Below are positions 4,947 to 23,948 of a DNA stretch of 29,392 nucleotides, one piece after another. Each line of letters starts with the position of its first letter. The stretch's first letter is position 1. The notes below the pieces were generated by a model that saw only the letters and a list, made by a program, of their open reading frames with translations, ran no database searches and was not told the origin of the DNA. The DNA is from a virus. Its lineage: Duplodnaviria; Caudoviricetes. Where the stretch lies: IMG/VR virus record IMGVR_UViG_3300044638_004209, positions 1-29,392 of that record. One strand, 5' to 3'. The translations under genes were made by a program, and so were the position numbers.

Positions 4947-5207
4947 TTATCGTTTTCGTGGTGGGGGTGGTGATGTCGGTATGTTGCTTGTTTTTCTTTT
5001 TCTAGCTCGCCTAGCCCAGATCGCCAGCAACTCTCGAACCCACTCTTTAGCAGAAACCATTTCAGTTCGCCAATCTTCCCTATCCTCGGGATCTACACCG
5101 CACAGTTCGGCATAACAGGCCGCAAGTTCGAGCCGTTGGTCATCGGTTAAGGGTGGGATTACGTCGCCGGTTGGTGGTGGTGGTGGGGCTGGTTCTTTAG
5201 TTGGCAT
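4947..5207 (-). CDS. Hypothetical Pro-rich protein
   Basis: 86-aa ORF in operon context; its start lies inside the 34-bp duplication. Confidence 0.6.
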   Translation of the reverse strand: MPTKEPAPPPPPTGDVIPPLTDDQRLELAACYAELCGVDPEDREDWRTEMVSAKEWVRELLAIWARRARKRKTSNIPTSPPPPRKR

Positions 5208-5266
5208 CTTGCACCTTCTTCGATAGTTCTTTAGTTGGCATCTTGCACCTTCTTCGATAGTTCTTT
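5192..5266. repeat. Exact 34-bp tandem duplication (about 2.2 copies)
   Basis: gttctttagttggcatcttgcaccttcttcgata at 5192-5225 and 5226-5259, plus gttcttt at 5260-5266. Confidence 0.95.
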
Positions 5267-6628: not shown

Positions 6629-7526
6629 CTTGTTTCAGATCCGCAAGCATCTGCCTAAGGATGTGAGCAGTCCGTGGCGGGACGGCATCGACGGAACGCT
6701 CCAAGGTTTCCAGAAACGAATCGCCGGTGTGTTGGAGATCCTGCAACTCTTGGATGACCTCGGATGCCACCTTGGCATCCTCGATCTCAGGTTGCCACGA
6801 TTCTGCCCACACAGGTTCAGGCACGTCGTAGGGGTGCTTCTCGATGGAACCATCGGACATCAGGACTCCGTAGTGAGGCACTAGGGACTTCTGATCGGCG
6901 TTTTGCGGGATGAACCCGCCGTGGTTCATCACGTTGGGTAACATCCAAGGAATATGATTGTCCCCAATAATCATGGCATCGAGGTTGGGGTAGAGTCGCT
7001 CGAAACGAGACGACTCGTCGGCTTTGGCGTGGCAGTTGAACTGGTTGCTCCATGCGTATTTGTGGAGGACTCCCAGCTTGATTGTGCCTTCTTTTTTATA
7101 CTCTGTCGGTGGCTCCCACCGACCCCAAGGCATAGCCCATAATTGCAAGCCCCGAACACCGATATTAACCCACTCTGTAGTTGGCAGATCAAAAATAATA
7201 TCCACAGCGGCTAGGCATCCGTAGGCTCCTCTGAGCCTACTTTCATAGTCGTGGTAGCGAAGATCGTGTTGACCTGGGATAGCCGCCATCTGAGGTAGCT
7301 TTTGGACGGCGAATCGGACGAGTTCGCTCGATGGATTCCATCGGTCGAATACGTCGCCTGCGCAGATTATCGGGGAACTCCACCGACGCGATGCTTCCCC
7401 CAAAGCGTTGAGATGATTCTCCATGACCTCGTACCAGTCCTTTTCGGCCCTGGCACTCGGGGTAGTCTCCCGCAAGTGGAGATCGGAACACAGGATGGCT
7501 AAAGGGGCCTTTTGCACGTCGGACAT
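6621..7526 (-). CDS. SbcD/Mre11 (gp47-like) metallophosphoesterase nuclease
   Basis: Motifs SDLH, AGDVFD, PGQHD, H and GDNH. Start reassigned to MSDVQK (7526). Confidence 0.85.
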   Translation of the reverse strand: MSDVQKAPLAILCSDLHLRETTPSARAEKDWYEVMENHLNALGEASRRWSSPIICAGDVFDRWNPSSELVRFAVQKLPQMAAIPGQHDLRYHDYESRLRGAYGCLAAVDIIFDLPTTEWVNIGVRGLQLWAMPWGRWEPPTEYKKEGTIKLGVLHKYAWSNQFNCHAKADESSRFERLYPNLDAMIIGDNHIPWMLPNVMNHGGFIPQNADQKSLVPHYGVLMSDGSIEKHPYDVPEPVWAESWQPEIEDAKVASEVIQELQDLQHTGDSFLETLERSVDAVPPRTAHILRQMLADLKQDG

Positions 7527-8629
7527 ACTTCCCTCACTAATTTGATTTTGGTTTCTAACTCGGTGACAGATTGGCAGGCGACTTGGTAAGTCCCCTGCCA
7601 ATCTGCTATACCACTCAACACACGTTCCAACTTTGACTGCTTCGCTCGCGACTCTGCGAGTCGCTTGCTTGCTTCGAGCAGGAGATCCACGTCGCCGTGG
7701 ATCTCCTTAGTCGATGCGAGGCGTTGTATTGCAGATTGCAATACAACGAATCGGGATTGCTTGGCGGCAATCTGCTCGCCCTGCTTTTTCAGTTTTGCTA
7801 ATCCTGATCCAACAGTATTAACTAAACTGATCTTGGCCGACACGTCGGCCAAAGGTGCAACCGTCGTCAGAATCGCCTTACGGCGATTCTGCTTGTCGGC
7901 TAAAGCCTTGGCCTGATCGGCCAAGGCTTGCAAGCCTAGTATCAACTTTTCTAATGCTAGCAGAGACTTGGATAGCTCCACGACTACCTGCGTCTTGTCA
8001 GACAGCAGCGTGTATCGGCTTTGCTTATCCTGTAACTCTTGCATAAGCACTACTAATGATTTGTGCTGTACCAGAACGCCTGGAACCCAGGCGATCTGGT
8101 CGAGTTCGGCTCTCTGCTTCTCGGCGATGGTTTCCATCGCCGAAAGTTCGCCCTTGGTTCGAGTAGCGTTGCTGGCCGCCATCGCGTTTGCCTTGTCGAT
8201 GATCGACAAGTCCACAATGCGGTTGAGTTCCTTTGCCATCTGGCCGGGGGATAGCGTCAGCAGGAATGGAGCATCGTGCTGGCCTTGCAGGTTGATCTCC
8301 GAGAGTCCGAGTGTAGCTTGGACTTCGGATGGTTGCTTCGTGGCGCACGCCACGAAGGTCTGTCCGGCGACTCTGTAGCCGTACCCCTCGGATGGATGCT
8401 TGAATCGAGTGACCTCGCCTCTCTCAGAGGCGATGGTCACTTCGGTATGCGGCTCGTCGAACGTCTGCAATCCGGTGATCGGCTTGTGTTCCACAAGCCA
8501 CCGGATTGCACGAAAGACGGACGATTTACCTGCGTTTGTGGGGCCGACGATCACGTTGACGTTCGGAACGAACGTCAATCGTCGGTCGCGGTGGGCCTGG
8601 AAATTGGTCAGGTGGATTTCTGTGAGCAT
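7499..8629 (-). CDS. SbcC/Rad50 (gp46-like) ATPase, N-terminal half ending in a zinc hook
   Basis: LTNFQAH, Walker A GPTNAGKSS, Q-loop INLQGQHD, long coiled coil, terminal CPTCKRPL. Confidence 0.85.
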   Translation of the reverse strand: MLTEIHLTNFQAHRDRRLTFVPNVNVIVGPTNAGKSSVFRAIRWLVEHKPITGLQTFDEPHTEVTIASERGEVTRFKHPSEGYGYRVAGQTFVACATKQPSEVQATLGLSEINLQGQHDAPFLLTLSPGQMAKELNRIVDLSIIDKANAMAASNATRTKGELSAMETIAEKQRAELDQIAWVPGVLVQHKSLVVLMQELQDKQSRYTLLSDKTQVVVELSKSLLALEKLILGLQALADQAKALADKQNRRKAILTTVAPLADVSAKISLVNTVGSGLAKLKKQGEQIAAKQSRFVVLQSAIQRLASTKEIHGDVDLLLEASKRLAESRAKQSKLERVLSGIADWQGTYQVACQSVTELETKIKLVREVCPTCKRPL

Positions 8630-8630
8630 C

Positions 8631-9014
8631 TTACTTGGCCGCCTCTGCTCTAGCCTCTACCCTCACTTTAGCTTTGGTGTGTAGGGCTAGGATCTGATCC
8701 AACTCCTCATTGGTGAAGATACTAGCAGGTTCGGTTCTGAATATGCGGGATACATGGAATACCTTATCTTGTCGCTCCACTTTCTTCCGTATGTCATCAG
8801 TGATGACATACGCATGATGATGAATTCTACTCCACATATCCAATCCCCGGATAGTCAGATCGGGGTTGACGACATAGTAGTCCGTATGTTCGGAACCTAT
8901 CGTCAATCTTCCGGTTTTGCTGATCTTTCTGATCTTGTAGATTTCATACTGATTATCTCGATGGATAGCGAGTTCATCCCCGACTTTCCATTCTTTCTTC
9001 TGCTCAGACATCAT
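8631..9014 (-). CDS. Hypothetical protein
   Basis: 127 aa, coupled to its neighbours; WKVGDE N-terminus is SH3/KOW-like. Confidence 0.65.
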   Translation of the reverse strand: MMSEQKKEWKVGDELAIHRDNQYEIYKIRKISKTGRLTIGSEHTDYYVVNPDLTIRGLDMWSRIHHHAYVITDDIRKKVERQDKVFHVSRIFRTEPASIFTNEELDQILALHTKAKVRVEARAEAAK

Positions 9015-10213
9015 TTCCTCGGTAGATACTTATTAGGTACGAAGTGTTCCTTGATAATGCCATTCTCGACCATCTGCATCGAAGCTAGCAGCAATTCGAC
9101 TATGGCATCCATCCCGTTATACGTCAGGAGCTTTGGTGTGGGAATCGAAAATATCTTGTTTCTCTGAGAATTTTCCTCGGACTCGAAGAACGAATCCACG
9201 TCATCAGCGAAGTAGGGCACGCCCAACTTCGCAAACGCCTGAAACTTCAAGCCCGTGATGCCGCTGTTGGGATTCTCCCAATGCGCGGCCTGCATCGTAT
9301 CCCACCACCACCGGCGAACCTGAACCCCCAGCTTGGATCGGCTCCACCGATCCTCGAACTTCATGTTCGCAGCAATCTTCTGGATGTCCGATACCAGGAA
9401 TCGCCGAATCGCATCGTGCGTATCGGCGAACACCGGGAACGATATGCAATGTACGTCGCCTTCGGCGACGTATGCCACCGCCATCGACACGATCAACTGG
9501 TTATCCCACTCGGGCTTTAGCCCGGTGGTTTCGTAGTCGAACGCTGCGATCTTGGCCGTCTTGGTGATCTTGTCCAGTTCGGCAATGATCTCTTGGGCGT
9601 GGTAGACCTGCCGGATTCGACTGTCTAGCGGTACGCACCCATCGGGCCACGGGCGGCCCGATATTCGCATCGCATCCCGTAGGTACTTGTACTCAAACAT
9701 GCTCGACACGTCGAGCATCCGTTTGTGTTCGCCCATTAGGCCCACCGGGCAGATCCAGGCGTTGAGATCCCTGCAAGGGATCACCGCGCCGTACCACCGG
9801 TCGTAAAGCTCGGCAGGCTGTTGCCAATACCGGCCAATGACCGACTGCGTGGCTCTTGGCCCGTAGGGAATGACGACTTCGGGGTTGAGGCGAGCGAGTT
9901 CGCTCGCCACAAGCGGTTGGCAATGCCTCCACGCCTCGTTTGAGGCCCCTGGGCAGGCCGCTGCGGGCACTTTAGGGTAAGCATCGAGAGTTACGCCAAC
10001 CCGACTGCAAACTGTCCCTAAACGGCCAAATTGGCCGTTTAGGAGGGCATCCGGCGCATCATCACCGGCTTTATCGACCACAAAGACGACTTTGGCCGGT
10101 TTACCCGGCCAAGTCTGCTTTGGATGCTGGCAACTTCGGTCTGCCTTGCACGTCCCGCAAAGCGGGACGACGGGCAGAGACTTGGTTAGCTTTGCGGAAG
10201 CGAACAGCGGCAT
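9011..10213 (-). CDS. UDG-like (family 4) domain + DnaQ-like 3'-5' exonuclease; N-terminal part of a split family A DNA polymerase
   Basis: CGTCKADRSC...WRHC Cys pattern and LNPEVVIPYG. ExoI AFDYETTGL, ExoII ANMKFED, WDTM, ExoIII YNGMDA. Confidence 0.8.
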   Translation of the reverse strand: MPLFASAKLTKSLPVVPLCGTCKADRSCQHPKQTWPGKPAKVVFVVDKAGDDAPDALLNGQFGRLGTVCSRVGVTLDAYPKVPAAACPGASNEAWRHCQPLVASELARLNPEVVIPYGPRATQSVIGRYWQQPAELYDRWYGAVIPCRDLNAWICPVGLMGEHKRMLDVSSMFEYKYLRDAMRISGRPWPDGCVPLDSRIRQVYHAQEIIAELDKITKTAKIAAFDYETTGLKPEWDNQLIVSMAVAYVAEGDVHCISFPVFADTHDAIRRFLVSDIQKIAANMKFEDRWSRSKLGVQVRRWWWDTMQAAHWENPNSGITGLKFQAFAKLGVPYFADDVDSFFESEENSQRNKIFSIPTPKLLTYNGMDAIVELLLASMQMVENGIIKEHFVPNKYLPRK

Positions 10214-14921: not shown

Positions 14922-15992
14922 TTATTCGTACCTTTTCTTACGGGTTACTGTCAGTTGGGACTCGATAGAGTCCCAACAAGCCTGCATCGCCTCGAACAAC
15001 TCTTGTTCTCGGCCATCATCTTCGATCTTGCGAATGAGATCTTCGCGATAGTGTGTGGTTTCGTAGAACGGGCAGGAGATCCTGCCCGAAGATGCTGTCC
15101 ACGCCTTTTCTTTGAGTAGGAAATCGACCGCCGCGCCGGTCGCATCCACACCGAAGTCCGGCATGATTGGGATGCTGACTGCTCGCTGTCTGCCGTTGAC
15201 ACGGTTCTTTTCGACTTTGAATACCGGGTTGATGCCGATGATCCGCTTTTGGCCGTTGACTTCCTTTGTCAGCTTCTCGCCAGGATACGTCCAAATCTCG
15301 ACCGATCCGCCAAACTTGATCGCATGGCCGCCACCGCGAACATGCTTTGGCCCATACAAGCCTGCTTTGAGGTTATCTCGCACCTGCGAGATGCTCAGCA
15401 AAATCGATCCGGAATCCTCGATCATGGTGAGGATTCTAGGGAGTCTTTGGCTGTTGATTTTGGCTTTGCCGTCACCGTAGTTGCCGTCGATCTCTTTGCC
15501 TTCGGCGCGATTCTTCGCGTCGTCGGCAATCTGCTTTTCCTTCTGCTCGCTGGACAGGGTGTCCATCGAGTCGATGATCGCGACAAACTTCTTGCCCGCT
15601 TTGATCTTGGCTTCTAGCCAATCGTAGACGAATTCAAGTAGCATCGGCTTGCCGGGTTCGGAGCGAAGCACTTGGATTCGCTTGGCCGCCTTCGACCCGA
15701 AGAACTTCTCGAAGTCGAAGTGGTTGCCCACTTCGGCATCAATATGCCACAATTCGTAATCATCGAAATCAGGGTTGTTGGCCGCTTCGGCCAACAACGT
15801 CAACGTCGCCAGCGTCTTACCGCTGGACGAGTCACCGACGTAGAAAACGTAGGTTCCTGCCATGATTCCCTTACGCCAGTCGCCGGATACGGCGAGGTTC
15901 AGCAGGGGGCATCCGAGCGAAAGGAACTTCTGTTCCTTTCGCTTGGTGGTTGCTGCTTCTTCGAGGACTTCGAGTGGTTTCTTTTTAGCCAT
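14922..15992 (-). CDS. RecA/UvsX-like recombinase
   Basis: SLGCPLLNLAVSG, Walker A GDSSSGKT, IDAE, IIDS, ISQVRD, GGGHAIKF, VEKNR. Start reassigned to MAKKK (15992). Confidence 0.9.
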   Translation of the reverse strand: MAKKKPLEVLEEAATTKRKEQKFLSLGCPLLNLAVSGDWRKGIMAGTYVFYVGDSSSGKTLATLTLLAEAANNPDFDDYELWHIDAEVGNHFDFEKFFGSKAAKRIQVLRSEPGKPMLLEFVYDWLEAKIKAGKKFVAIIDSMDTLSSEQKEKQIADDAKNRAEGKEIDGNYGDGKAKINSQRLPRILTMIEDSGSILLSISQVRDNLKAGLYGPKHVRGGGHAIKFGGSVEIWTYPGEKLTKEVNGQKRIIGINPVFKVEKNRVNGRQRAVSIPIMPDFGVDATGAAVDFLLKEKAWTASSGRISCPFYETTHYREDLIRKIEDDGREQELFEAMQACWDSIESQLTVTRKKRYE

Positions 15993-16515
15993 CTTGTAAC
16001 TCCATAAGGATCTTGATACTGCCGAGGATGTATTGCGTTTTGTCTTTAGTCTCAATCGTACTGTTGTACGATTGAGGATACAAGATTGCATCACCGCCTT
16101 TCTCCCTAAAAAGCCGACAATTATCGACATTATCGTCGATCAGGATCGCCCCTGGGCGAGCCAGTTCGTACTTGTCGTGCATGTAGATCGTCTGCCGGAT
16201 CTCGATGTCCAGTTCCCTTTTGAGCCACACGGCTCTGCCGTACAGGCAATTCGGATGCGGGAACGGTCGAGTGCAGACGTATACCGAGTCGGCAAGTTTG
16301 CCGACTTCGGCCCAGAGTTTCTTGGCCCCTGGTAAGAGTTCCATCGAATCCCAAAACGATACGAACGACATCATGTCGTCAAGCTGGGCTTGGGTGATTC
16401 CGTTTTCCGAGAAGCCGTCCCAAGCCTTCCAAGGCTTGAGAGGCTTATCGGCCCATAGATGTACCTGCTTGACCCAATCACCCAAAACACCATCACAATC
16501 AACGTAAATAACCAT
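15985..16515 (-). CDS. HAD-family 5'(3')-deoxyribonucleotidase-like protein
   Basis: IYVDCDGVL (DxDGV), FW..M..LPGA and ILIDD. Start reassigned to 16515. Confidence 0.8.
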   Translation of the reverse strand: MVIYVDCDGVLGDWVKQVHLWADKPLKPWKAWDGFSENGITQAQLDDMMSFVSFWDSMELLPGAKKLWAEVGKLADSVYVCTRPFPHPNCLYGRAVWLKRELDIEIRQTIYMHDKYELARPGAILIDDNVDNCRLFREKGGDAILYPQSYNSTIETKDKTQYILGSIKILMELQDG

Positions 16516-16908: not shown

Positions 16909-16934
16909 GTCGGGACTTGTTTACAAGTCCCGAC
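16909..16934. other. Perfect 12-bp inverted repeat immediately 3' of tRNA-like element A
   Basis: gtcgggacttgt-tt-acaagtcccgac. Confidence 0.8.
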
Positions 16935-16938
16935 AAAA

Positions 16939-17115
16939 GGATCGGGCAGGATTTGCGCCTGCTGGGGTTTACACTATGGGACTGAATCGAACTGTCCTTA
17001 ACACGCCAGACCAACGTGGCTTCTCGACTGCTTTCGCAGTCGAGAGTGCATTTATTGTCTGTCCCCGCGATTTAAGTCGCGTGTCTCGCCGTGGTAGCCG
17101 CCACGCCGCCGATCC
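16939..17115 (-). ncRNA. tRNA-like element A (177 nt)
   Basis: Acceptor GGATCGG/CCGATCC, CGTGG/CCACG hairpin, T-arm GCAGG-CGCAAAT-CCTGC, large structured interior, TTTT trailer. Confidence 0.65.
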
Positions 17116-17127
17116 TCGGCCTGAGTG

Positions 17128-18264
17128 TTACTCAGGCCAATCCGAATCCCACGCTTCGCTATCACCTGAACCAACGGAAGCTGGTACTGGTTCCGGCGAT
17201 GCCGTAGGCGTGGCTTCTGTCGCTTGTGCCACAGGCTCCCGCGACAAGTCTGCCAAGTTTACCTTGTGGGGTTCATCGTCTTTATCAAAGACGCTGATGA
17301 CCCCTCCGGCGTTCTTGTGGACTGTCACTTGGCCCAAGGTTCGGTGGTAGACCACCGAACCCTTGGCAGGCCAGGAATCTGCCGCCGTAGTCGCCGGTGC
17401 TGGTGGTTGGGTCGTCGTGACCGTGGGTCTTTGCACCTTTGACTCAGGAACAGCAGGCTTCGGAATATCCAACGGCTTTGGAGCCGGAACTGGTTTCATC
17501 TCAGCCGAAACCGTGGCGGGAGCCTCGGTTTCAGCAGGGACAGCCGAAAGATCCTCCGGATCTTCGTCGTAGAACTTGGCCTTCAAGGTTTCTGCACTCT
17601 CGATGACCAACAGGTTATCGAGTTGCAAGGCTTGGGCCAAGATCGCATCGGGAACGCCGCCGTGTCGGTCGAAGTCGAACGATACGGCTTCGTAGCACTT
17701 ACCCTTAGGTGTGGGCTTCTCAGCGAAAGTGACGTAGATATACGCACCTTCGACTGGATCAGCGAAGTAGTCGATCCACTCGCGACCTGGGATCGCGACC
17801 TTGGCCGAGACAGTCGTGTTCAACTGCTTGGAGAATAGGTGGTAGCTGTGGTCGAACAGCAAGACTTGGTTCTGCTCAGGCAACCACACTGTATACAGTG
17901 TGCGTTGCTTGGCATAAAACTTCTCTTTAGCCATCTCCCTAGTCAACTCACCCGAATCGATGGCGGCACTGATGCCGTCGCAGATTGGGCACTTCCCGCC
18001 TTTGGTCAACTTAGGGCAGATGGCATAGCCCTTGCCGTCTGATCCCATGTTGTTGTGGACGTAGTAGTCGCGAGCGTAGTGCAACTCGCCGTCCTTTGCG
18101 ACAGGGTGCTTCGCACCCTGCGGTACGGTGTACGGCAGTACCACCATCTTGATCGTACCTGCCTTGTCGATCTTGAGGGTCTTTACGCCCTGGGGAATCC
18201 TCAGGACACCGCCGCCACGACCTTCTGCTGCTTTATCTCGGGTTTTCTTGGATGACAACGCCAT
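17128..18264 (-). CDS. Single-stranded DNA-binding protein (gp32-like)
   Basis: YYVH...CPK....KCPICD Zn motif, FADPVEG, Pro/Ala linker, acidic aromatic tail DSEAWDSDWPE; next to UvsY-like and clamp loader genes. Confidence 0.7.
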   Translation of the reverse strand: MALSSKKTRDKAAEGRGGGVLRIPQGVKTLKIDKAGTIKMVVLPYTVPQGAKHPVAKDGELHYARDYYVHNNMGSDGKGYAICPKLTKGGKCPICDGISAAIDSGELTREMAKEKFYAKQRTLYTVWLPEQNQVLLFDHSYHLFSKQLNTTVSAKVAIPGREWIDYFADPVEGAYIYVTFAEKPTPKGKCYEAVSFDFDRHGGVPDAILAQALQLDNLLVIESAETLKAKFYDEDPEDLSAVPAETEAPATVSAEMKPVPAPKPLDIPKPAVPESKVQRPTVTTTQPPAPATTAADSWPAKGSVVYHRTLGQVTVHKNAGGVISVFDKDDEPHKVNLADLSREPVAQATEATPTASPEPVPASVGSGDSEAWDSDWPE

Positions 18265-18265
18265 G

Positions 18266-18685
18266 TTAGTTCTTCACTCCCTTCGGTTGGATGTTGGTGG
18301 AACCGAGGAAGCCAGCGATGGACAACTCGGTCAGATACTTCAAACTGGAACGCTTTGCGTCGAGAGCATCGCAAACTGCGCGACTCTCGGACAGCTTAGC
18401 CTTAGCGGCAACTACTGCCTGCTGGGCTTCGGTGTAACTCGGCTGAATGAGGATCAATGCCTTGATCGTATCCTCAGTCGTCTTGGTAATGCCATAGTTG
18501 ACGGGGTTTTGCCTGATGTCGATGCTGAGTTTAGCTTCGACGAGTTTTAGGTAGTTTTCGGCGACGAGGGCCGCTGTTGCGTCCTCGGTCGCAGCGCGAT
18601 TCCACACCAGGATGTCCTGCGGGAGTGTTTCGAGATCCTCGCTGAGACGGTTACGATCCACCGACAAGTTTGTTTGGTCAGACAT
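18266..18685 (-). CDS. UvsY-like recombination mediator (putative)
   Basis: 139-aa helical protein with KTTEDTIKA...ALDAKRSSL; size and position next to the SSB fit. GGAGG RBS. Confidence 0.5.
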   Translation of the reverse strand: MSDQTNLSVDRNRLSEDLETLPQDILVWNRAATEDATAALVAENYLKLVEAKLSIDIRQNPVNYGITKTTEDTIKALILIQPSYTEAQQAVVAAKAKLSESRAVCDALDAKRSSLKYLTELSIAGFLGSTNIQPKGVKN

Positions 18686-18729
18686 TGCTGCCTCCTAAGT
18701 GAAAATTGTTAATCCGACTGTGCTAGGTT

Positions 18730-19632
18730 CTACGTCGAAGCCCTGACCAAAGCAAGAATAAATCCTGGTTTGCGGGAAGAAAAAAATGGATTCTCAAACT
18801 GAGACATGATCTTGACTACCGTTGGTACGGATTTTGAATTCAAAAGCATTGTCGCGCCGTAGGACATGATCGCACAGCGCAGTCGCTCGATCTCCCCTTC
18901 GGGGAGATCCTTCAAGACTAGACTATGCGTCGGGAAGATTTTTCTCCCGGCGTATAGATCCTGTACCAACTTGAATACGTCTGGTTTGAGTTCCTCGGGG
19001 TTCCCGAGGATCTCCGGCCAACGCTCCTTCGGAGCGTTGGCAATCTGCTCTAGCAGCACCAAGGCTTGCCTTGGGCTGCCATTGGCCGCCTGCGAGATCG
19101 TCGTCGGGATGCAGTCGATTCCTTCGGCGGTCGCTACCCTACCTACTAGGGTGTTCAAGTCGGCGATGCTGACATCGCCGAGCTTGAAATGCGTCAGACG
19201 AGTCTGCAACGGCTTTTCCAGCTTTTCCGGGTTGGTCGTACACAGGATGAAGTAGACGTGCGCCGGAGTGTCCTCGGTCATCTTGAGCATGGCTCGCTGA
19301 CCTTGGGAAGTGATTTGGTGGGCTTCATCGATGATGTAGATCCGCTTGCCCCCAGAGAGCCCACGCATTTGCAATCGGCCCTCGATCTCGCGGATAGCGT
19401 CAACTCCGTTGTCGCTAGCTGCGTTTTTCTCGATGATGTCAACGCCGGATGCTCCGAGTTCCTTGGCGAGTATTCTCGCCAAGGTCGTCTTGCCTGTTCC
19501 ACTAGGGCCGGAAAACAAGAGTGCGTGAGGCAATGCTTGCTTGGCAAGCATTGACTTCAACTGGTTGATAACGGCTTCCTGGCCGACAAGATCGGCCAGG
19601 GTGGATGGTCGGTACTTTTGATAAAGGCCCAT
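18730..19632 (-). CDS. Clamp loader AAA+ subunit (DnaX/RFC-like)
   Basis: LYQKYRP..LADLVGQ, GPSGTGKTT, IIDEAH, MLKMTE, FILCTT, GSPRQAL. Confidence 0.9.
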   Translation of the reverse strand: MGLYQKYRPSTLADLVGQEAVINQLKSMLAKQALPHALLFSGPSGTGKTTLARILAKELGASGVDIIEKNAASDNGVDAIREIEGRLQMRGLSGGKRIYIIDEAHQITSQGQRAMLKMTEDTPAHVYFILCTTNPEKLEKPLQTRLTHFKLGDVSIADLNTLVGRVATAEGIDCIPTTISQAANGSPRQALVLLEQIANAPKERWPEILGNPEELKPDVFKLVQDLYAGRKIFPTHSLVLKDLPEGEIERLRCAIMSYGATMLLNSKSVPTVVKIMSQFENPFFSSRKPGFILALVRAST

Positions 19633-20249
19633 TACTTTAGAAATCCCTTCATAATCTCGGTGATTCGGCGTTGGAATTGTGGGAGTGATCCGTCGTTTAG
19701 AACGATGCGATCAACAGCAAATTGCTGTTGTTCGCTTCGGTGCGCAGGCAGGGTTGCGACTTCCTCGGAGACTCGCCCCTGGATTTCCCAAATCTCGCCG
19801 CCGTTGGATTTGATGAACTCCGCTTCCTCTGGGAAGCGGAGATCGCGAATCGCATACCTCGGCAGATTTTTTTCCCGCATACGTTGCTTGGCTATGTTCA
19901 CCCAACAGTAATCACCGAATACATCCCTGCCGTTCTCCGTACCGATGGTACGGAGCATTTGTCGAACGGCGGGATACCGCCGTTTGATCGTGTCCCAACC
20001 GTCCTTATCGACGAGGGTTTGTAGATAGATACACCGGTGGTGGGCAACCAACACCGGGGGATTGAGTCGGTACAAGGCTTCGTACACAGGGTCGGAGAAT
20101 CCCATGATTCCGTAGCCGAAATGGTACGCAAGCCATGAGGCTGCGGTATCCTTGCCGGAGCCAATCTCCCCCCGTAATCCTATGATTGGAGGTAATTTGT
20201 CTAGCTTGCCTTGTACGGTCGGTTCTTGTTCCTGGACGGTTTCAGACAT
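19632..20249 (-). CDS. Deoxynucleoside monophosphate kinase
   Basis: IIGLRGEIGSGKDT, FSDP, RQMLRTIGTE.GR, DLRFPEE, HRSE. Start reassigned to MSETV (20249). Confidence 0.85.
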   Translation of the reverse strand: MSETVQEQEPTVQGKLDKLPPIIGLRGEIGSGKDTAASWLAYHFGYGIMGFSDPVYEALYRLNPPVLVAHHRCIYLQTLVDKDGWDTIKRRYPAVRQMLRTIGTENGRDVFGDYCWVNIAKQRMREKNLPRYAIRDLRFPEEAEFIKSNGGEIWEIQGRVSEEVATLPAHRSEQQQFAVDRIVLNDGSLPQFQRRITEIMKGFLK

Positions 20250-20881
20250 TCTTCGCCTATTTTCCCTTTTCTGATGCGTTTCAATACAGTTGTGCGAGCC
20301 AATCCATACTGGTCGGCCCATTCTGTATAGTGTTTAGTGACTCCATCTATTGTCAATACTATTGAACAGCGTTTGTTAAGTGATTGTTCGATTTTTGTTG
20401 CCCATCTACAGTTTTCTGGGCAATAGTCTCCGTTGTTGTCGATGCGATCCAAAGAATGTCTATTGCTTGGACGGTCTTGCATATCACTGAGGAAATTACT
20501 AAACCCATCCTCCCCGAGCCAGCGTTCACACACCCTAACTCCTCGTCCTCCGTAGTTGTGGTATGACTTGTTGTTTGGGTTGTAGCATCTGGCTTTCATG
20601 GCTAGCCATATGTTGTGCAAGCTGGTCTTGGCTCGAAGGTGCCTGCCTACAGATTCTCGTACTCGCAAGTCCCTGTAGCATCCACAACTGGTTGTTTTTC
20701 CGCCTCGAACATTGTCCCAAAAACAGCATTTGTAGGTTCCGCAATGGCATTGCACCACTACTAACCAATCTACCCTTGTTTGCGATTTACGAACACGGAA
20801 CGGAGCCCCAACAACTTTTAGATTGCCAAAGACTTTGCCTACCTCAGAGGGCAGGATTTGAATACCATTGCAGTTTTCCAT
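20201..20881 (-). CDS. HNH-type homing endonuclease-like protein
   Basis: CHCG..SCGC, MKARC, NYGGRGVRVCERW, SLDRIDNNGDYCPENCRWAT; AT-richer than its neighbours. Confidence 0.8.
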   Translation of the reverse strand: MENCNGIQILPSEVGKVFGNLKVVGAPFRVRKSQTRVDWLVVVQCHCGTYKCCFWDNVRGGKTTSCGCYRDLRVRESVGRHLRAKTSLHNIWLAMKARCYNPNNKSYHNYGGRGVRVCERWLGEDGFSNFLSDMQDRPSNRHSLDRIDNNGDYCPENCRWATKIEQSLNKRCSIVLTIDGVTKHYTEWADQYGLARTTVLKRIRKGKIGEECLKPSRNKNRPYKAS

Positions 20882-20901
20882 AGTTTCTCCTTTACTGCAT
20901 T

Positions 20902-20930
20902 ATTCTATGGTATTCTTATTGGATTGTCTA
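20902..20930 (-). promoter_or_regulatory. Sigma70-like promoter for the HNH gene
   Basis: TAGACA (20930-20925), 17-nt spacer, TAGAAT (20907-20902), then AAGGAG RBS and ATG at 20881. Confidence 0.6.
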
Positions 20931-22283
20931 GCTTTTATGGTATGGTTTTTTATCGGCCCACGATTCTCCAACTTCTGTTTCCGTACTGAGGGGCAGCACT
21001 ATCCAAGGCCATTGTGCTGCCAGTTTGTACGTCATAATGGAGGTAGCCATTTCTATGTAATCATCGACTTCCTGTCTAGGTACTTCTGCCAGAATAGAAT
21101 CGTGAATCTGGCAGATCAGTCGGGTTCCCATGCGTCTTTTGAGAATTTCTTTGGTAATCTCAATAACGCTTTTGAGAAGGCAGTGAAACGCGCATCCTTG
21201 GGTTTCTACGTTCAGGATCTCGTTTCGCTTGTAGACTCCATGAATTCTGAATCCAGTCTTTGTGTATAGACAGCCGTTTCGCAAATACCCTTCCCAGGTA
21301 TCGTTTCGCCATTTGGCGAAAACCGGAAATCGTTGCGACCAGAATCTATCGCAAACGCCTTTCATGTGGTATGTGAAAGTATCTGGGGACATATTGTGTT
21401 CTGTGCCCAGTGATCGAATGTTTTTAGTCTTGAGGTATTCGTGTACTGGAACGTCGTTATACGTTGCTGACTCTGCACTTTTCCAGAGCTTTTTAGCAAT
21501 GGCGGCATAGTAGTCTCCATAGATCAAACTGAAATTCGTGACTTTTGCCATCTGTCGCAAAGGCTTAGGAACATCTTCTCCAAGGAAAAAACAATCCTGA
21601 GCAGTGGCTCTATGGAAATCAAATCCAGTGGTTAGGTACTCCATCATCGAAGGATCTCGATGCAAACACGCGCCTATCACCACTTCTAGGGTTGAGTAGT
21701 CGATCTCCACAATCACGTTGTTCGGATCGCTAGGCTTGATAATCCCCCGAATCACCTTCCCGATGTCGGGATCTCGGATCGGGATATTCTGCAAGTTCGG
21801 AGAATCCGAACTTGACCGATATGTCGTAACCTTGTGCAAATTGAAAAAAGCGTGAACTCTGCCGTTGCAGAGTTCACGCTTGAATGGGGCCAAATACGTC
21901 CCACGCAGCTTTTCCAACTTCTGCGTGCGTTGGAACAGCTTTGTGTATGGAGTATTGATTTCTTGCAGGGCTTCGTCATCCAGAGACAGTTTACCTGTCT
22001 CTGGATTGATGACTCCCCCTGGGTGTCCCATGACGTTGTAGAGGATGTCGGCTAGTTGCTCTCGGGAGCCAAGTTTTGTCTTGGCTCCGTATCGCTTTCG
22101 CTGTTCCTCGTATTCAGGCATCGACCGCAATTCCGCTTCCATCCCCTTGATGCGATTGCCGATGTCGGCAATCGCAGTATCCAGACGCTCTGCGCAGACT
22201 GGCATCCCTACGCTTTCCATTCTGGAAAGCGCGAGAGATCCTTCGTGCATCAAGGCGTAGGCTTGTGGGGATGCCGGTTTCAT
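20928..22283 (-). CDS. polA: Family A DNA polymerase, polymerase domain only
   Basis: RSSSDSPNLQNIP, motif A EIDYSTLE, motif B RQMAKVTNFSLIYG, motif C QIHDS. No exonuclease domain. Start reassigned to MKPAS (22283, TAATG overlap). Confidence 0.9.
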   Translation of the reverse strand: MKPASPQAYALMHEGSLALSRMESVGMPVCAERLDTAIADIGNRIKGMEAELRSMPEYEEQRKRYGAKTKLGSREQLADILYNVMGHPGGVINPETGKLSLDDEALQEINTPYTKLFQRTQKLEKLRGTYLAPFKRELCNGRVHAFFNLHKVTTYRSSSDSPNLQNIPIRDPDIGKVIRGIIKPSDPNNVIVEIDYSTLEVVIGACLHRDPSMMEYLTTGFDFHRATAQDCFFLGEDVPKPLRQMAKVTNFSLIYGDYYAAIAKKLWKSAESATYNDVPVHEYLKTKNIRSLGTEHNMSPDTFTYHMKGVCDRFWSQRFPVFAKWRNDTWEGYLRNGCLYTKTGFRIHGVYKRNEILNVETQGCAFHCLLKSVIEITKEILKRRMGTRLICQIHDSILAEVPRQEVDDYIEMATSIMTYKLAAQWPWIVLPLSTETEVGESWADKKPYHKS

Positions 22284-22522
22284 TAGCGTCGTCGTCCCAA
22301 TCGGTCGTAGACAACGACTTTGCCAGCGGTCTTGACGATCTTGCCGACAGGTCGGCCAACTCGGTCGTAGACTTGCGAGCAAGTCCCGCCGACGCAGGTT
22401 GCGACCTTCGCCACGGGACGGCCCAAACGGTCAAAGACCGTTTGGGTATCACCCGCCATAGCAGCACATCCTGAACACAATGCGGCGACGATCATCACCG
22501 CGAAAATTGTTGGTTTCCGCAT
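22283..22522 (-). CDS. Small secreted/lipoprotein-like protein with three (F/Y)DR(L/V)GR repeats
   Basis: MRK + hydrophobic stretch + LCSGC; FDRLGRP, YDRVGRP, YDRLGRR. Confidence 0.65.
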   Translation of the reverse strand: MRKPTIFAVMIVAALCSGCAAMAGDTQTVFDRLGRPVAKVATCVGGTCSQVYDRVGRPVGKIVKTAGKVVVYDRLGRRR

Positions 22523-22556
22523 CGGAATACCCTCTTTCTAAATAAACCTAGAATCA

Positions 22557-22585
22557 GCAACCTAGCCCACGGCGGGCTAGGTTGC
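22557..22585. other. 12-bp hairpin 3' of the tRNA-like array (terminator or processing/stability stem)
   Basis: gcaacctagccc-acggc-gggctaggttgc. Confidence 0.75.
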
Positions 22586-22588
22586 AAA

Positions 22589-22680
22589 GCTCCGAGCAGG
22601 ATTCGAACCTGCGCCTCCTAGGTTTTGCCATTGAACAAAAAATGCTGGCCTAGGTATTCCACCGCAATAACTTCCGGGGC
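22589..22680 (-). tRNA. Atypical tRNA with an expanded (about 26-nt) anticodon loop; identity undetermined
   Basis: Acceptor GCCCCGG/TCGGAGC (one mismatch), CCTAGG/CCTAGG anticodon stem, canonical T-arm GCAGG-TTCGAAT-CCTGC. Confidence 0.6.
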
Positions 22681-22684
22681 AAAA

Positions 22685-22795
22685 GGATCGGGCAGGATTC
22701 AAACCTACTCACATGCTGCTTGCAAAACCCAGAGGCATGTGCCCCGTAGACCAGTGGTGCAAGTCTGTTGCGTGTTCCCACCACGCCGCCGATCC
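22685..22795 (-). ncRNA. tRNA-like element B (111 nt)
   Basis: GGATCGG/CCGATCC, D-like GCGTG/CACGC, AGAC/GTCT arm, long arm CACATGC/GCATGTG, T-arm GTAGG-TTTGAAT-CCTGC, TTTT. Confidence 0.65.
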
Positions 22796-22797
22796 AG

Positions 22798-22866
22798 TTG
22801 CAGGTCTAGGAATCGCACCTAGCACTCGAAGCTCATGAGACTCCGATGGGCACTAGACCACCTGCA
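22798..22866 (-). tRNA. tRNA with CAT anticodon (Met or Ile2), reduced D-arm
   Basis: TGCAGGT/ACCTGCA acceptor, GGAGT-CTCATGA-GCTTC anticodon arm, CTAGG-TGCGATT-CCTAG T-arm; 69 nt, no encoded CCA. Confidence 0.6.
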
Positions 22867-22875
22867 AAATTAAAA

Positions 22876-23015
22876 GGATCGGGCAGGATTGGCTACCTGC
22901 TTGCGGCCTCCAGGATGCAATCGTTTACCCCTGATTCTCTGCCGAGTCTCTACGTTTCCGCTTCTCTGGCCGATGCCGCTTGTTTCAAATCGTGGTTGCG
23001 CCACGCCGCCGATCC
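22876..23015 (-). ncRNA. tRNA-like element C (140 nt)
   Basis: GGATCGG/CCGATCC, CGTGG-CGCAA-CCACG hairpin, GCGGC/GCCGC-closed interior, T-arm GCAGG-TAGCCAAT-CCTGC, TTTT. Confidence 0.65.
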
Positions 23016-23171
23016 TGTTTCTCTATCGTTTCATTTCCGTTCTCCTTAATCCGGGAGGTTGCAAGATTCCTCACAGAGATGCTTAATTTGAGGCTAGCTC
23101 GGTGTCTGGTACTCTTTCACCCAGACTCGTCTGCTTGCATCTTGTTCGTACCAAGGTCGCCCCGGTCGATC

Positions 23172-23948
23172 CTATTCTACGTCCAGTGGCCGCCTAAAGG
23201 CGGCCACTGTTATAGATTTTCCGATATTTTCTTCAAGAATAGGTAGATTCCCTGCTAATTCGCAGGGAATCCACGATGTAGGTAGGTAGCCAGAACCGAT
23301 ACCATTCGAGATGGCATAGGCCATCTCGATAGGGTTGCTGACCTCGGCCACCCCCTCTTGCGTCTCCGACAAGTAGCCGTACCACTCGCCGGTGATAAGC
23401 CTGTTCGGGTCTGTCCCGAACAGGCTTATTGGCAGTGTTTGGATGGCTTCGCCCTTCGCATTTTCATGCGCCGAGACGAATATGTCGTGTCCCGGCTTGT
23501 CTCGCTTTGCGAGCCAATCGCTGAAACTGTCGTAGGCAATTATCTTGGTGACTTGGTACTTGTCTGACAAGAGATCCGCAAGGTTGGGAGTGACAATCCC
23601 CAACCAGCGTTCGACGTGTACGGCCACTTGTGGCCGTACTTTTTGAGCATCTCCCAGCTTTTTCATCTCTCGCAGGAGCTTGCGGTGGGCCGCAAGCACC
23701 TTCTTAGCGTGCTTGTACAAGGCCATGCCGTCAGGCGTGGGCTTGCGAAAAGAATCAAGTAGCTTGACCTGGAAGATGGCCTCCATCTTGCGGTTGCTGT
23801 TGGGGATGATCGCGGTGTTGCCCATCTTGAGCTTCTTGCTGGCGGCTTGGGCACTGCCTAGCTCTACGCATAGGACGAACCAGCGAAGGGCTTCGAGCTT
23901 TGGTTCGACCACTTGGTCGATAGGATAGCGACGTGAGGAGCTAGTCAT
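23172..23948 (-). CDS. LysR-like transcriptional regulator (divergent)
   Basis: LEALRWFVLCVELGSAQAASKKL...MEAIFQVKLL...PTPDGMALY matches the LysR winged-HTH pattern. Confidence 0.7.
   Translation of the reverse strand: MTSSSRRYPIDQVVEPKLEALRWFVLCVELGSAQAASKKLKMGNTAIIPNSNRKMEAIFQVKLLDSFRKPTPDGMALYKHAKKVLAAHRKLLREMKKLGDAQKVRPQVAVHVERWLGIVTPNLADLLSDKYQVTKIIAYDSFSDWLAKRDKPGHDIFVSAHENAKGEAIQTLPISLFGTDPNRLITGEWYGYLSETQEGVAEVSNPIEMAYAISNGIGSGYLPTSWIPCELAGNLPILEENIGKSITVAAFRRPLDVE

Follow-up and report, generated by a model that had tools for sequence, protein, structure and literature searches.

A candidate family of phage RNAs with a constant tRNA-like shell and exchangeable interiors

Shell elements compared with described tRNA-like RNAs

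The closest described systems to the elements reported here are stable RNAs of the phages T5 and T4. RNA2 and RNA1 of T5 (NC_005859, misc_RNA T5s06 and T5s03) are annotated as "tRNA-like stable RNA with unknown functions", and the species 1 RNA of T4 (rnaC, 139 nucleotides [nt]) is cotranscribed with tRNAs according to PMC2330249. We analyzed a 29-kb virus record, called the window at its whole length of 29,392 nt, which carries three elements, A, B and C, in which a common tRNA-like shell encloses different interiors. The shell elements share the build of the T5 and T4 RNAs: a terminal acceptor stem with a T-arm, a non-tRNA interior, a length of 100 to 180 nt and a place in a phage RNA-gene cluster. 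In T5 RNA2 (125 nt), the likeness extends to all seven pairs of the acceptor stem, a D-like hairpin of 5 bp, a T-arm with five of five pairs and the 5' strand of the shell and, as in A, a T-loop-like hairpin inside a non-tRNA interior. The T5 RNAs also cover a similar size range and are clustered with other RNA genes. T4 rnaC, which is part of the tRNA cluster, has five of five T-arm pairs and an acceptor-like stem with 5 of 7 pairs, and its long interior is not that of a tRNA.

However, these RNAs scored poorly against a shell model built from 43 families of type-I elements (those with the D-like hairpin of the window), with the family of A outside the training set. A, B and C reached 54 to 72 bits, whereas T5 RNA2 reached 17.3 bits in a partial match no better than that of a chance hairpin, T5 RNA1 9 bits or less, and T4 rnaC 9 bits from its T-arm only; T4 rnaD (species 2) showed no shell. 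Furthermore, T5 RNA2 is one gene whose interior is fixed, at least 80% of it being covered in 418 of 445 matching phage records, and T4 rnaC is a single conserved gene (728 of 748 matches with a coverage of at least 80%). In T5, every such RNA comes with an acceptor stem of its own, as opposed to one shell here with at least 79 interior families moving between slots. The shell elements thus resemble the T5 and T4 RNAs in build, are not homologous to them by this test, and are set apart by being modular. This modularity, one shell with many interiors exchanged between slots, would be what is new. In T5 (L554), RNAIV (6839-6941) and RNA3 (7878-7950) have loops like the unusual 8-nt T-loop of C.

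Other tRNA-related RNAs are more distant. Canonical tRNAs (RF00005) share the 7-bp acceptor and 5-bp T stems, the T-loop motif and a helix at the variable-arm position. In contrast, A, B and C lack an anticodon arm with a 5-bp stem and a 7-nt loop, have C at position 8 and U73, fall below the Rfam gathering threshold and received no ARAGORN call. They differ from tRNAs with a group I or II intron in the anticodon loop in that their interiors are unrelated and short and that no Rfam intron family was found in the window or in 24 related loci. Transfer-messenger RNA (tmRNA) likewise retains the acceptor stem and T-arm while another domain replaces the anticodon arm, but the elements are far shorter and A, B and C have A3-U70 instead of the G3-U70 alanine pair of tmRNA. 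Rfam and ARAGORN called no tmRNA in the window, tag frames in the interiors not being searched separately.

YrlA, as described in PMC4201824, is a tRNA mimic found in bacteria as well as phages. It has D and T arms, and one member both undergoes RNase P cleavage and gains CCA. Its tRNA-like domain is permuted, with the acceptor as an internal hairpin, and Ro60 is encoded no more than 4 kb away, whereas the acceptor of the shell joins the 5' and 3' ends, none of the 35 window proteins scanned matched TROVE/Ro60, and A, B and C have no match to it in Rfam. Allo-tRNAs, as described in PMC5389517, form polycistrons of irregular tRNAs, some of them translation-inactive, with anticodon arms and 8/4 or 9/3 stems. 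Arrays of odd tRNA-like genes are thus common to both, but the shell is 7/5 (8/5 with a possible extra pair) and its motifs were absent from the supplement of that paper. An engineered tRNA scaffold with acceptor, T and D arms protects inserted RNA in Escherichia coli (PMC3753655); this scaffold is man-made and the insert replaces its anticodon stem-loop. A and C, by contrast, carry their large domain where a tRNA has its variable arm.

The earlier note, made from the sequence of the window alone, had described three minus-strand elements of 177, 111 and 140 nt, and all three were located where it had placed them (Table 1). Their common ends were also as described: the first 15 nt and the last 12 nt are identical in A, B and C, with TTTT behind, and form a 7-bp acceptor stem and a T-arm with a 5-bp stem and a 7- or 8-nt loop. 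The D-like hairpins and the three helices named just before the T-arm were found as well, and none of the elements encodes CCA. The 15-nt start is present in three exact copies, compared with 0.11 matches expected from shuffles with up to two mismatches, and 0 of 100 shuffles reached three. At the anticodon position, A has a short hairpin (17066-17081) whose loop measures 6 nt, and a domain of ~100 nt occupies its variable-arm position; C has an unpaired stretch at the anticodon position and a two-hairpin domain closed by a 5-bp helix; the T-loop of B has U at position 56. The predicted ensemble gave pair probabilities of 0.97 to 1.0 for the acceptor stem of A and C, and of 0.98 (A, C) and 0.05 (B) for the T-stem, the low value of B resulting from a competing pairing. 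Whole-element folding z scores were -3.94 for A, -1.3 for B and -2.6 for C. The expectation of no or only pseudogene-like hits was borne out: A, B and C had no Rfam match at E up to 1, and ARAGORN called only a Met-like gene between C and B.

A starts 12 nt past the stop codon of a putative single-strand DNA binding protein (SSB) gene, a position called slot 1. Slot 2, behind a LysR-like gene, is occupied by C, the Met-like gene, B and, in addition, D, a fourth element that the earlier note did not contain. All four elements are oriented with the operons.

The family and its exchange between slots

Three pattern scans of viral contigs and two protein-anchored scans yielded at least 125 distinct elements; seven were dropped as mis-bounded or chance matches, leaving at least 118 in at least 79 interior families, with all counts being lower bounds. 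A-type elements lie outside this set, as the filter demanded U54. Singletons make up 52 of the 79 families, and the Chao1 estimate is ~143 families, a figure to be read with the probable splitting of some related families by BLAST clustering of short interiors. Type-I elements number at least 78 in at least 52 families, have lengths of 65 to 211 nt and are followed by TTT in 53 of 78 cases. The smallest, of 65 to 66 nt (family 2), are hardly more than the shell and one hairpin, and, among the matches listed, as many as five consecutive shells formed an array (L221). The same acceptor stem and T-arm also carry short tRNA-like bodies with varied anticodon loops (L152, L179, L095, L232, L377, L448 and L481:8988-9055). 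In L481, a short body in the same shell at the slot of C scores 58 bits as RF00005, which indicates that the shell is tRNA-derived. Furthermore, genes of 160 to 170 nt with the same acceptor stem and T-arm, an ordinary D arm, encoded CCA and an internal T-loop-like motif lie inside tRNA clusters of larger phages (L400:2865-3024, L381:2863-3024, L421, L433 and L463). The shell at L478:222-324, in which the D arm is ordinary, has an anticodon stem that is long and interrupted, and this gene could be an intron-containing tRNA.

Seed patterns and a pairing filter bias the 118-element set, so pairing was assessed in loci retrieved only through their flanking proteins and free of such a filter. The search gave 34 rows, of which four joined the start of one element to the end of D and were dropped. 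In the remaining 30 shells, 27 pairs differed from the window consensus: nine were double Watson-Crick changes at five positions, 12 were G-U and six were broken, three of these in one degenerate copy. Thus, 21 of the 27 changes keep pairing. G-U pairs were favored over A-C, which fits the minus strand acting as RNA. In the same protein-anchored set, purine 57 and A58 were present in 20 of 24 seven-nt T-loops and U54 in 15 of 24. D-loop class and T-loop class were associated (chi-square 29.6, p 6e-6; 44 families), and D-loops with GG occurred with a canonical T-loop in 11 of 11 families; the two loops appear to vary together, as a tRNA elbow would. Related phages thus contain both homologues (at least 118 elements) and pair-keeping shell changes, whose absence the earlier note had named as speaking against a family.

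The lack of a canonical anticodon loop, claimed for the three elements, proved general: 0 of 53 type-I families had a 5-bp stem with a 7-nt loop (Y32, U33, R37), a count that takes in A itself and, for B and C, the representatives of their families. In the 118-element set, U occupied position 73 in 74 elements, followed by A (36) and G (3), CCA was encoded in 5, and G3-U70 occurred in 15, as opposed to A3-U70 in A, B and C. A(-1) and U73 were associated (p 5e-4), and this possible eighth pair would give an 8/5 arrangement. G73 is the discriminator that serves as an identity element of tRNA-Ser. A serine-like reading had been suggested for the elements, and its G1-C72, G2-C71 and A3-U70 pairs and variable-arm helix are indeed present, but it fails on the discriminator, which is U in A, B and C and G in only 3 of 118 elements.

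Comparison of orthologous positions showed nine interior types at slot 1 (19 loci) and 11 interior types, two of them related, as first element at slot 2 (14 loci). These counts include several near-identical strains, and L514 and L515, which carry elements, were scored as element-free by the distance limit alone. In L479, whose flanking protein is identical to that of the window, interior A is present in both slot 2 and slot 1, and the two copies differ at six positions, five of them in the T-loop. Interior B recurs in L121 and L482, and in L482 it lies directly at the position of C. The 3' junction of interior A in slot 2 was bridged without a difference by a contig of run X7, and another contig extended past the flank to cover 29 letters of the element, narrowly missing the 31-letter requirement; X7 is possibly not independent of the source of L479. 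Small open reading frames (ORFs) are gained or lost beside shells (L508, L513). At the DNA level, modular exchange is well supported.

Interior C is 93% identical in seven sequences, and some of its carriers have flanks of 3 to 6 kb with little or no DNA in common with the window; such conservation across unlike genomes would mean selection or recent transfer. Together with the many homologues, the pair-keeping changes and the different interiors in orthologous slots, it upholds the central proposal of the earlier note, a tRNA-chassis family with exchangeable interiors and not a product of decay. The family is real and widespread among uncultured phages, as judged by these comparisons, and apparently undescribed: the literature searched held no description of it, with most subscription papers and older T4/T5 papers outside that coverage. 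Six supplementary files of PMC10690425 contained no shell motif, and three more, including the two largest, may hold single-interior models.

Concerning the origin of the interiors, comparison with 1.8 Mb of fetched loci matched only other family members and chance 15- to 17-mers, and a spacer or guide origin was rejected as no phage-DNA match was found there. Nor was an interior found in the 401 genomes searched from the phylum to which G001 belongs, a genome known to carry an element, although this was a weak test with two candidates scored per genome. The 3' shell followed by U-CCA was found at four loci in metagenome contigs, two inside coding sequence and two in genomic tRNA-like genes, and none of the four was a processed RNA.

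Proposed carrier RNAs and competing readings

On balance, we find it probable that these elements encode processed, non-decoding carrier RNAs, in which the tRNA shell holds the interior as a payload and also anchors cassette exchange by recombination. The elements would be transcribed with the replication operons. RNase P would cut the 5' end, and 3' nucleases would trim into the U tract before CCA addition. In this way, the host tRNA-processing enzymes would recognize the shell and excise the interior-bearing RNA, whose L-shaped elbow and tRNA fold would keep it stable and its payload protected. In the DNA, the repeated shell would serve as a crossover point with 15 to 30 nt of homology per end, swapping payloads between slots and phages, and the RecA/UvsX-like recombinase encoded in the window may be a candidate agent of this exchange. 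The interiors would most likely bind host proteins or RNAs in phage-host conflict, a role that would explain their fast turnover. We more tentatively raise the possibility of a natural tRNA-scaffold cassette library, in which one shell displays well over 100 distinct effector RNAs that are shuffled between slots and genomes by recombination at the shell, a counterpart made of RNA to variable anti-defence gene islands.

Several observations weigh against the carrier reading. Folded cargo, as the earlier note had it, is found in A and C, whose interiors have z scores of -2.4 and -2.5, but is not general: the interior of B has a z score of +0.16, and 61 interior families have a mean of -0.69, compared with -1.28 for random window pieces (p 0.90). 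Taken together, the interiors are no more stable than shuffles or window pieces, and strong folding is not established for them as a class. The consensus fold of interior C has a double change in only 1 of 41 pairs, and the seven copies of this interior carry four T-loop types. The helix closing the interior does have 5.6 pairs compared with 4.8 in shuffles (p 0.001, 64 families), and most elements have two or three helices between the acceptor and T stems. As for the shell, A has C54 in its T-loop, the T-stem of B is weakly predicted, and much of the constancy in the 118-element set was imposed by the search patterns. The classes of D and T loops were drawn after seeing the data and have small cells, and kinship could yield their association. 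Three of 17 slot-2 loci have no element, so that an element there is dispensable, and some swaps in metagenomes could be assembly chimeras at repeats, one junction having been checked. Behind the LysR-like gene, L485, L486 and L494 have no full element but what is possibly a collapsed shell: a short hairpin, in which the T-stem strands persist, and part of an acceptor-like stem.

The weak folding of the interiors would be expected if the shell itself were the working part, a non-decoding decoy for those host defence enzymes that attack a tRNA at its acceptor end or elbow. The shell might instead occupy EF-Tu, the CCA-adding enzyme or a synthetase; in either case, the interior would be variable filler that avoids anticodon nucleases. 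Such a decoy would also fit a shell far more constant than the interiors, several copies per genome, members of 65 to 66 nt, and the use of the shell on short tRNA-like bodies with varied anticodon loops (families 5, 9, 22 and 37). We nevertheless consider it unlikely. The conservation of interior C across unlike genomes exceeds the need of a filler, unless the transfer was recent. In addition, a search of 401 genomes from the single candidate host phylum turned up no core tRNA that carries this 3' shell, so that no specific host tRNA is evidently copied. The 3' shell occurred at 31 places in 26 of these genomes, compared with 19 control places, and a family-type T-loop was present only at that in G001; a host tRNA or attachment site was discarded as the source of the shell on the same counts. 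A covariance-model search of 101 genomes gave no match, but it also missed the known element of G001 and so carries no weight.

The position of A behind the SSB stop codon, followed by the U tract and a hairpin, the co-orientation of the elements with the operons and the TTT tracts behind type-I elements would suit cis-acting punctuation, in which the folds mark sites of phage mRNA cleavage or termination and the excised RNA is a by-product. However, a single cut requires neither dozens of conserved interiors nor arrays of as many as five shells, and the empty slot 2 in some loci likewise counts against it, making this explanation improbable.

A similarly low probability applies to decayed tRNA genes, with ends homogenized by gene conversion and middles representing neutral insertions. 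A continuum does exist from near-canonical tRNA to long elements, the UAA hairpin of A with its 6-nt loop and the unpaired UUUGAAA of C resemble relics of leucine and serine anticodon loops, and some copies are degenerate (L511). Decay is at odds, however, with the compensated changes, the G-U bias and the conserved T-loop motif, and with whole interiors being conserved between unlike phages while more than 100 distinct forms persist. Finally, DNA-level cassette sites (attC-like or integration sites) that are tRNA-like in sequence with no RNA role would share the constant ends, variable middles and ORFs gained or lost beside shells, but are very improbable given the RNA signatures (the preference for G-U over A-C and the T-loop motif), the lack of an integrase among the 35 window proteins scanned with Pfam and PHROG on this partial contig, and interiors that match no other phage DNA in the 1.8 Mb of fetched loci.

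Genomic setting and significance

The window is a phage replication region with genes for a helicase, primase, family A polymerase, clamp loader and processivity factor, as well as a putative SSB, a RecA-like recombinase and a resolvase. Comparison with phage records and proteins gave no close cultured phage, and no match of phage records to the slot-2 cluster reached beyond the T-arm. The DNA of the window is present in 24 listed freshwater metagenome runs, and contigs of four lake runs cover the elements; pieces of run X1 matched B, and most of the cluster, letter for letter. A look for RNA runs among the 24 gave none, a result that tells neither for nor against transcription.

Table 1. Elements and neighboring features in the window
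Feature	Position	Strand	Description
RecA/UvsX-like recombinase gene	14922..16130	-	PF00154, E 1.6e-9; PHROG 97
Perfect hairpin directly behind A	16909..16934	-	Overlaps promoter-like site 16923-16895 (consensus match only)
Element A, 177 nt	16939..17115	-	Acceptor stem, D-like hairpin, T-arm with C54; 53.8 bits to shell model
Putative SSB gene	17128..18264	-	PHROG 1192, E 7e-4 (weak); slot-1 synteny anchor
Perfect hairpin closing slot-2 cluster behind D	22557..22585	-	Conserved in close relatives
Element D, 92 nt, second shell family	22589..22680	-	Own acceptor, conserved unpaired D region, canonical T-arm
Element B, 111 nt	22685..22795	-	Shell; GG in D-like loop; hairpin directly before T-arm; 64 bits
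Met(CAU)-like tRNA gene between C and B	22797..22866	-	Aberrant D region; ARAGORN; no Rfam score
Element C, 140 nt	22876..23015	-	Shell; 8-nt T-loop; 72.1 bits to shell model
Shine-Dalgarno-like sequence and three-codon minigene (Met-Lys-Arg-stop)	23023..23048	-	Ends 7 nt before C
Putative structured module upstream of C, not tRNA shell	23090..23163	-	Conserved in relatives; no Rfam match
LysR-like regulator gene	23172..23948	-	Atlas feature matches 0.96 to LysR clusters; no Pfam match; slot-2 synteny anchor

Element D has a variable stem-loop at the anticodon position. Its family comprises 16 rows, one of which is a chance match, and 13 copies were aligned. In this alignment, 98% of cells were paired, 5 of 12 pairs had double changes, and the covariation score of the acceptor and T-stem was reached by 0 of 500 shuffles. 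Carriers are L013, L041, L056, L073, L088, L165, L176, L177, L204, L211, L480 and L481, the last with a copy that scores 35.6 bits as tRNA, and the members often lie directly behind a type-I element. Since the family of D has its own shell, the design of a constant shell with a variable middle is, judged by this alignment, used at least twice in the slot-2 cluster.

The Met(CAU)-like gene resembles the initiator-type genes of L421 and L433. The module upstream of C was seen in L191, L488, L490, L491 and L492, with an expandable internal hairpin or insertion in some relatives. The minigene was found in 6 of 112 upstream windows, compared with 4 of 1263 controls, and was set aside as a general family feature on this low count; in L040, L009, L121 and L167, its codons vary (MKR, MRP, MER) while its length is constant. 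Between shells, recurrent spacer modules (L013, L040, L221, L508 and others) include four motifs found in 21, 20, 12 and 9 distinct contexts, and these modules may be RNAs in their own right.

Elsewhere in the window, an HNH endonuclease gene (20201-21640, minus strand) lies behind the polymerase gene. Its stretch and the 3' part of the polymerase gene were unaligned or only ~68% identical in relatives otherwise 95% identical, as expected beside a homing endonuclease. The family A polymerase is apparently split, with 3'-5' exonuclease and polymerase domains at 9011-10213 and 20928-22382 (minus strand), 11 kb apart. A hairpin with the exact 7-bp acceptor sequence of the shell at 9335-9353 in the exonuclease gene is probably a chance occurrence, and a perfect 34-nt tandem duplication is located at 5192-5259.

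A GTDB scan (13 of 64 parts) gave mostly chance matches; among the matches listed, L300 (a Planctomycetaceae bin), L256 (a Phycisphaerales bin) and L353 appeared genuine, L300 being the sole named genome bin with a family-type element. These matches point, only tentatively, to a host in the Planctomycetota. A search with the clamp-loader protein indicated no host.

The shell family would represent a modular form of the build of T4 species 1 and T5 RNA1/RNA2, stable RNAs annotated without a function. Shell and interior appear to evolve separately, making recognition of the shell and roles of the interiors testable apart. The family offers dozens of candidate functional RNAs, those in the window being missed by Rfam and ARAGORN, and a simple rule for finding more shell elements. 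It is possibly a natural carrier for stable RNA expression, and if the payloads counter host defences, it would add to phage counter-defence a new layer that consists of RNA cassettes.

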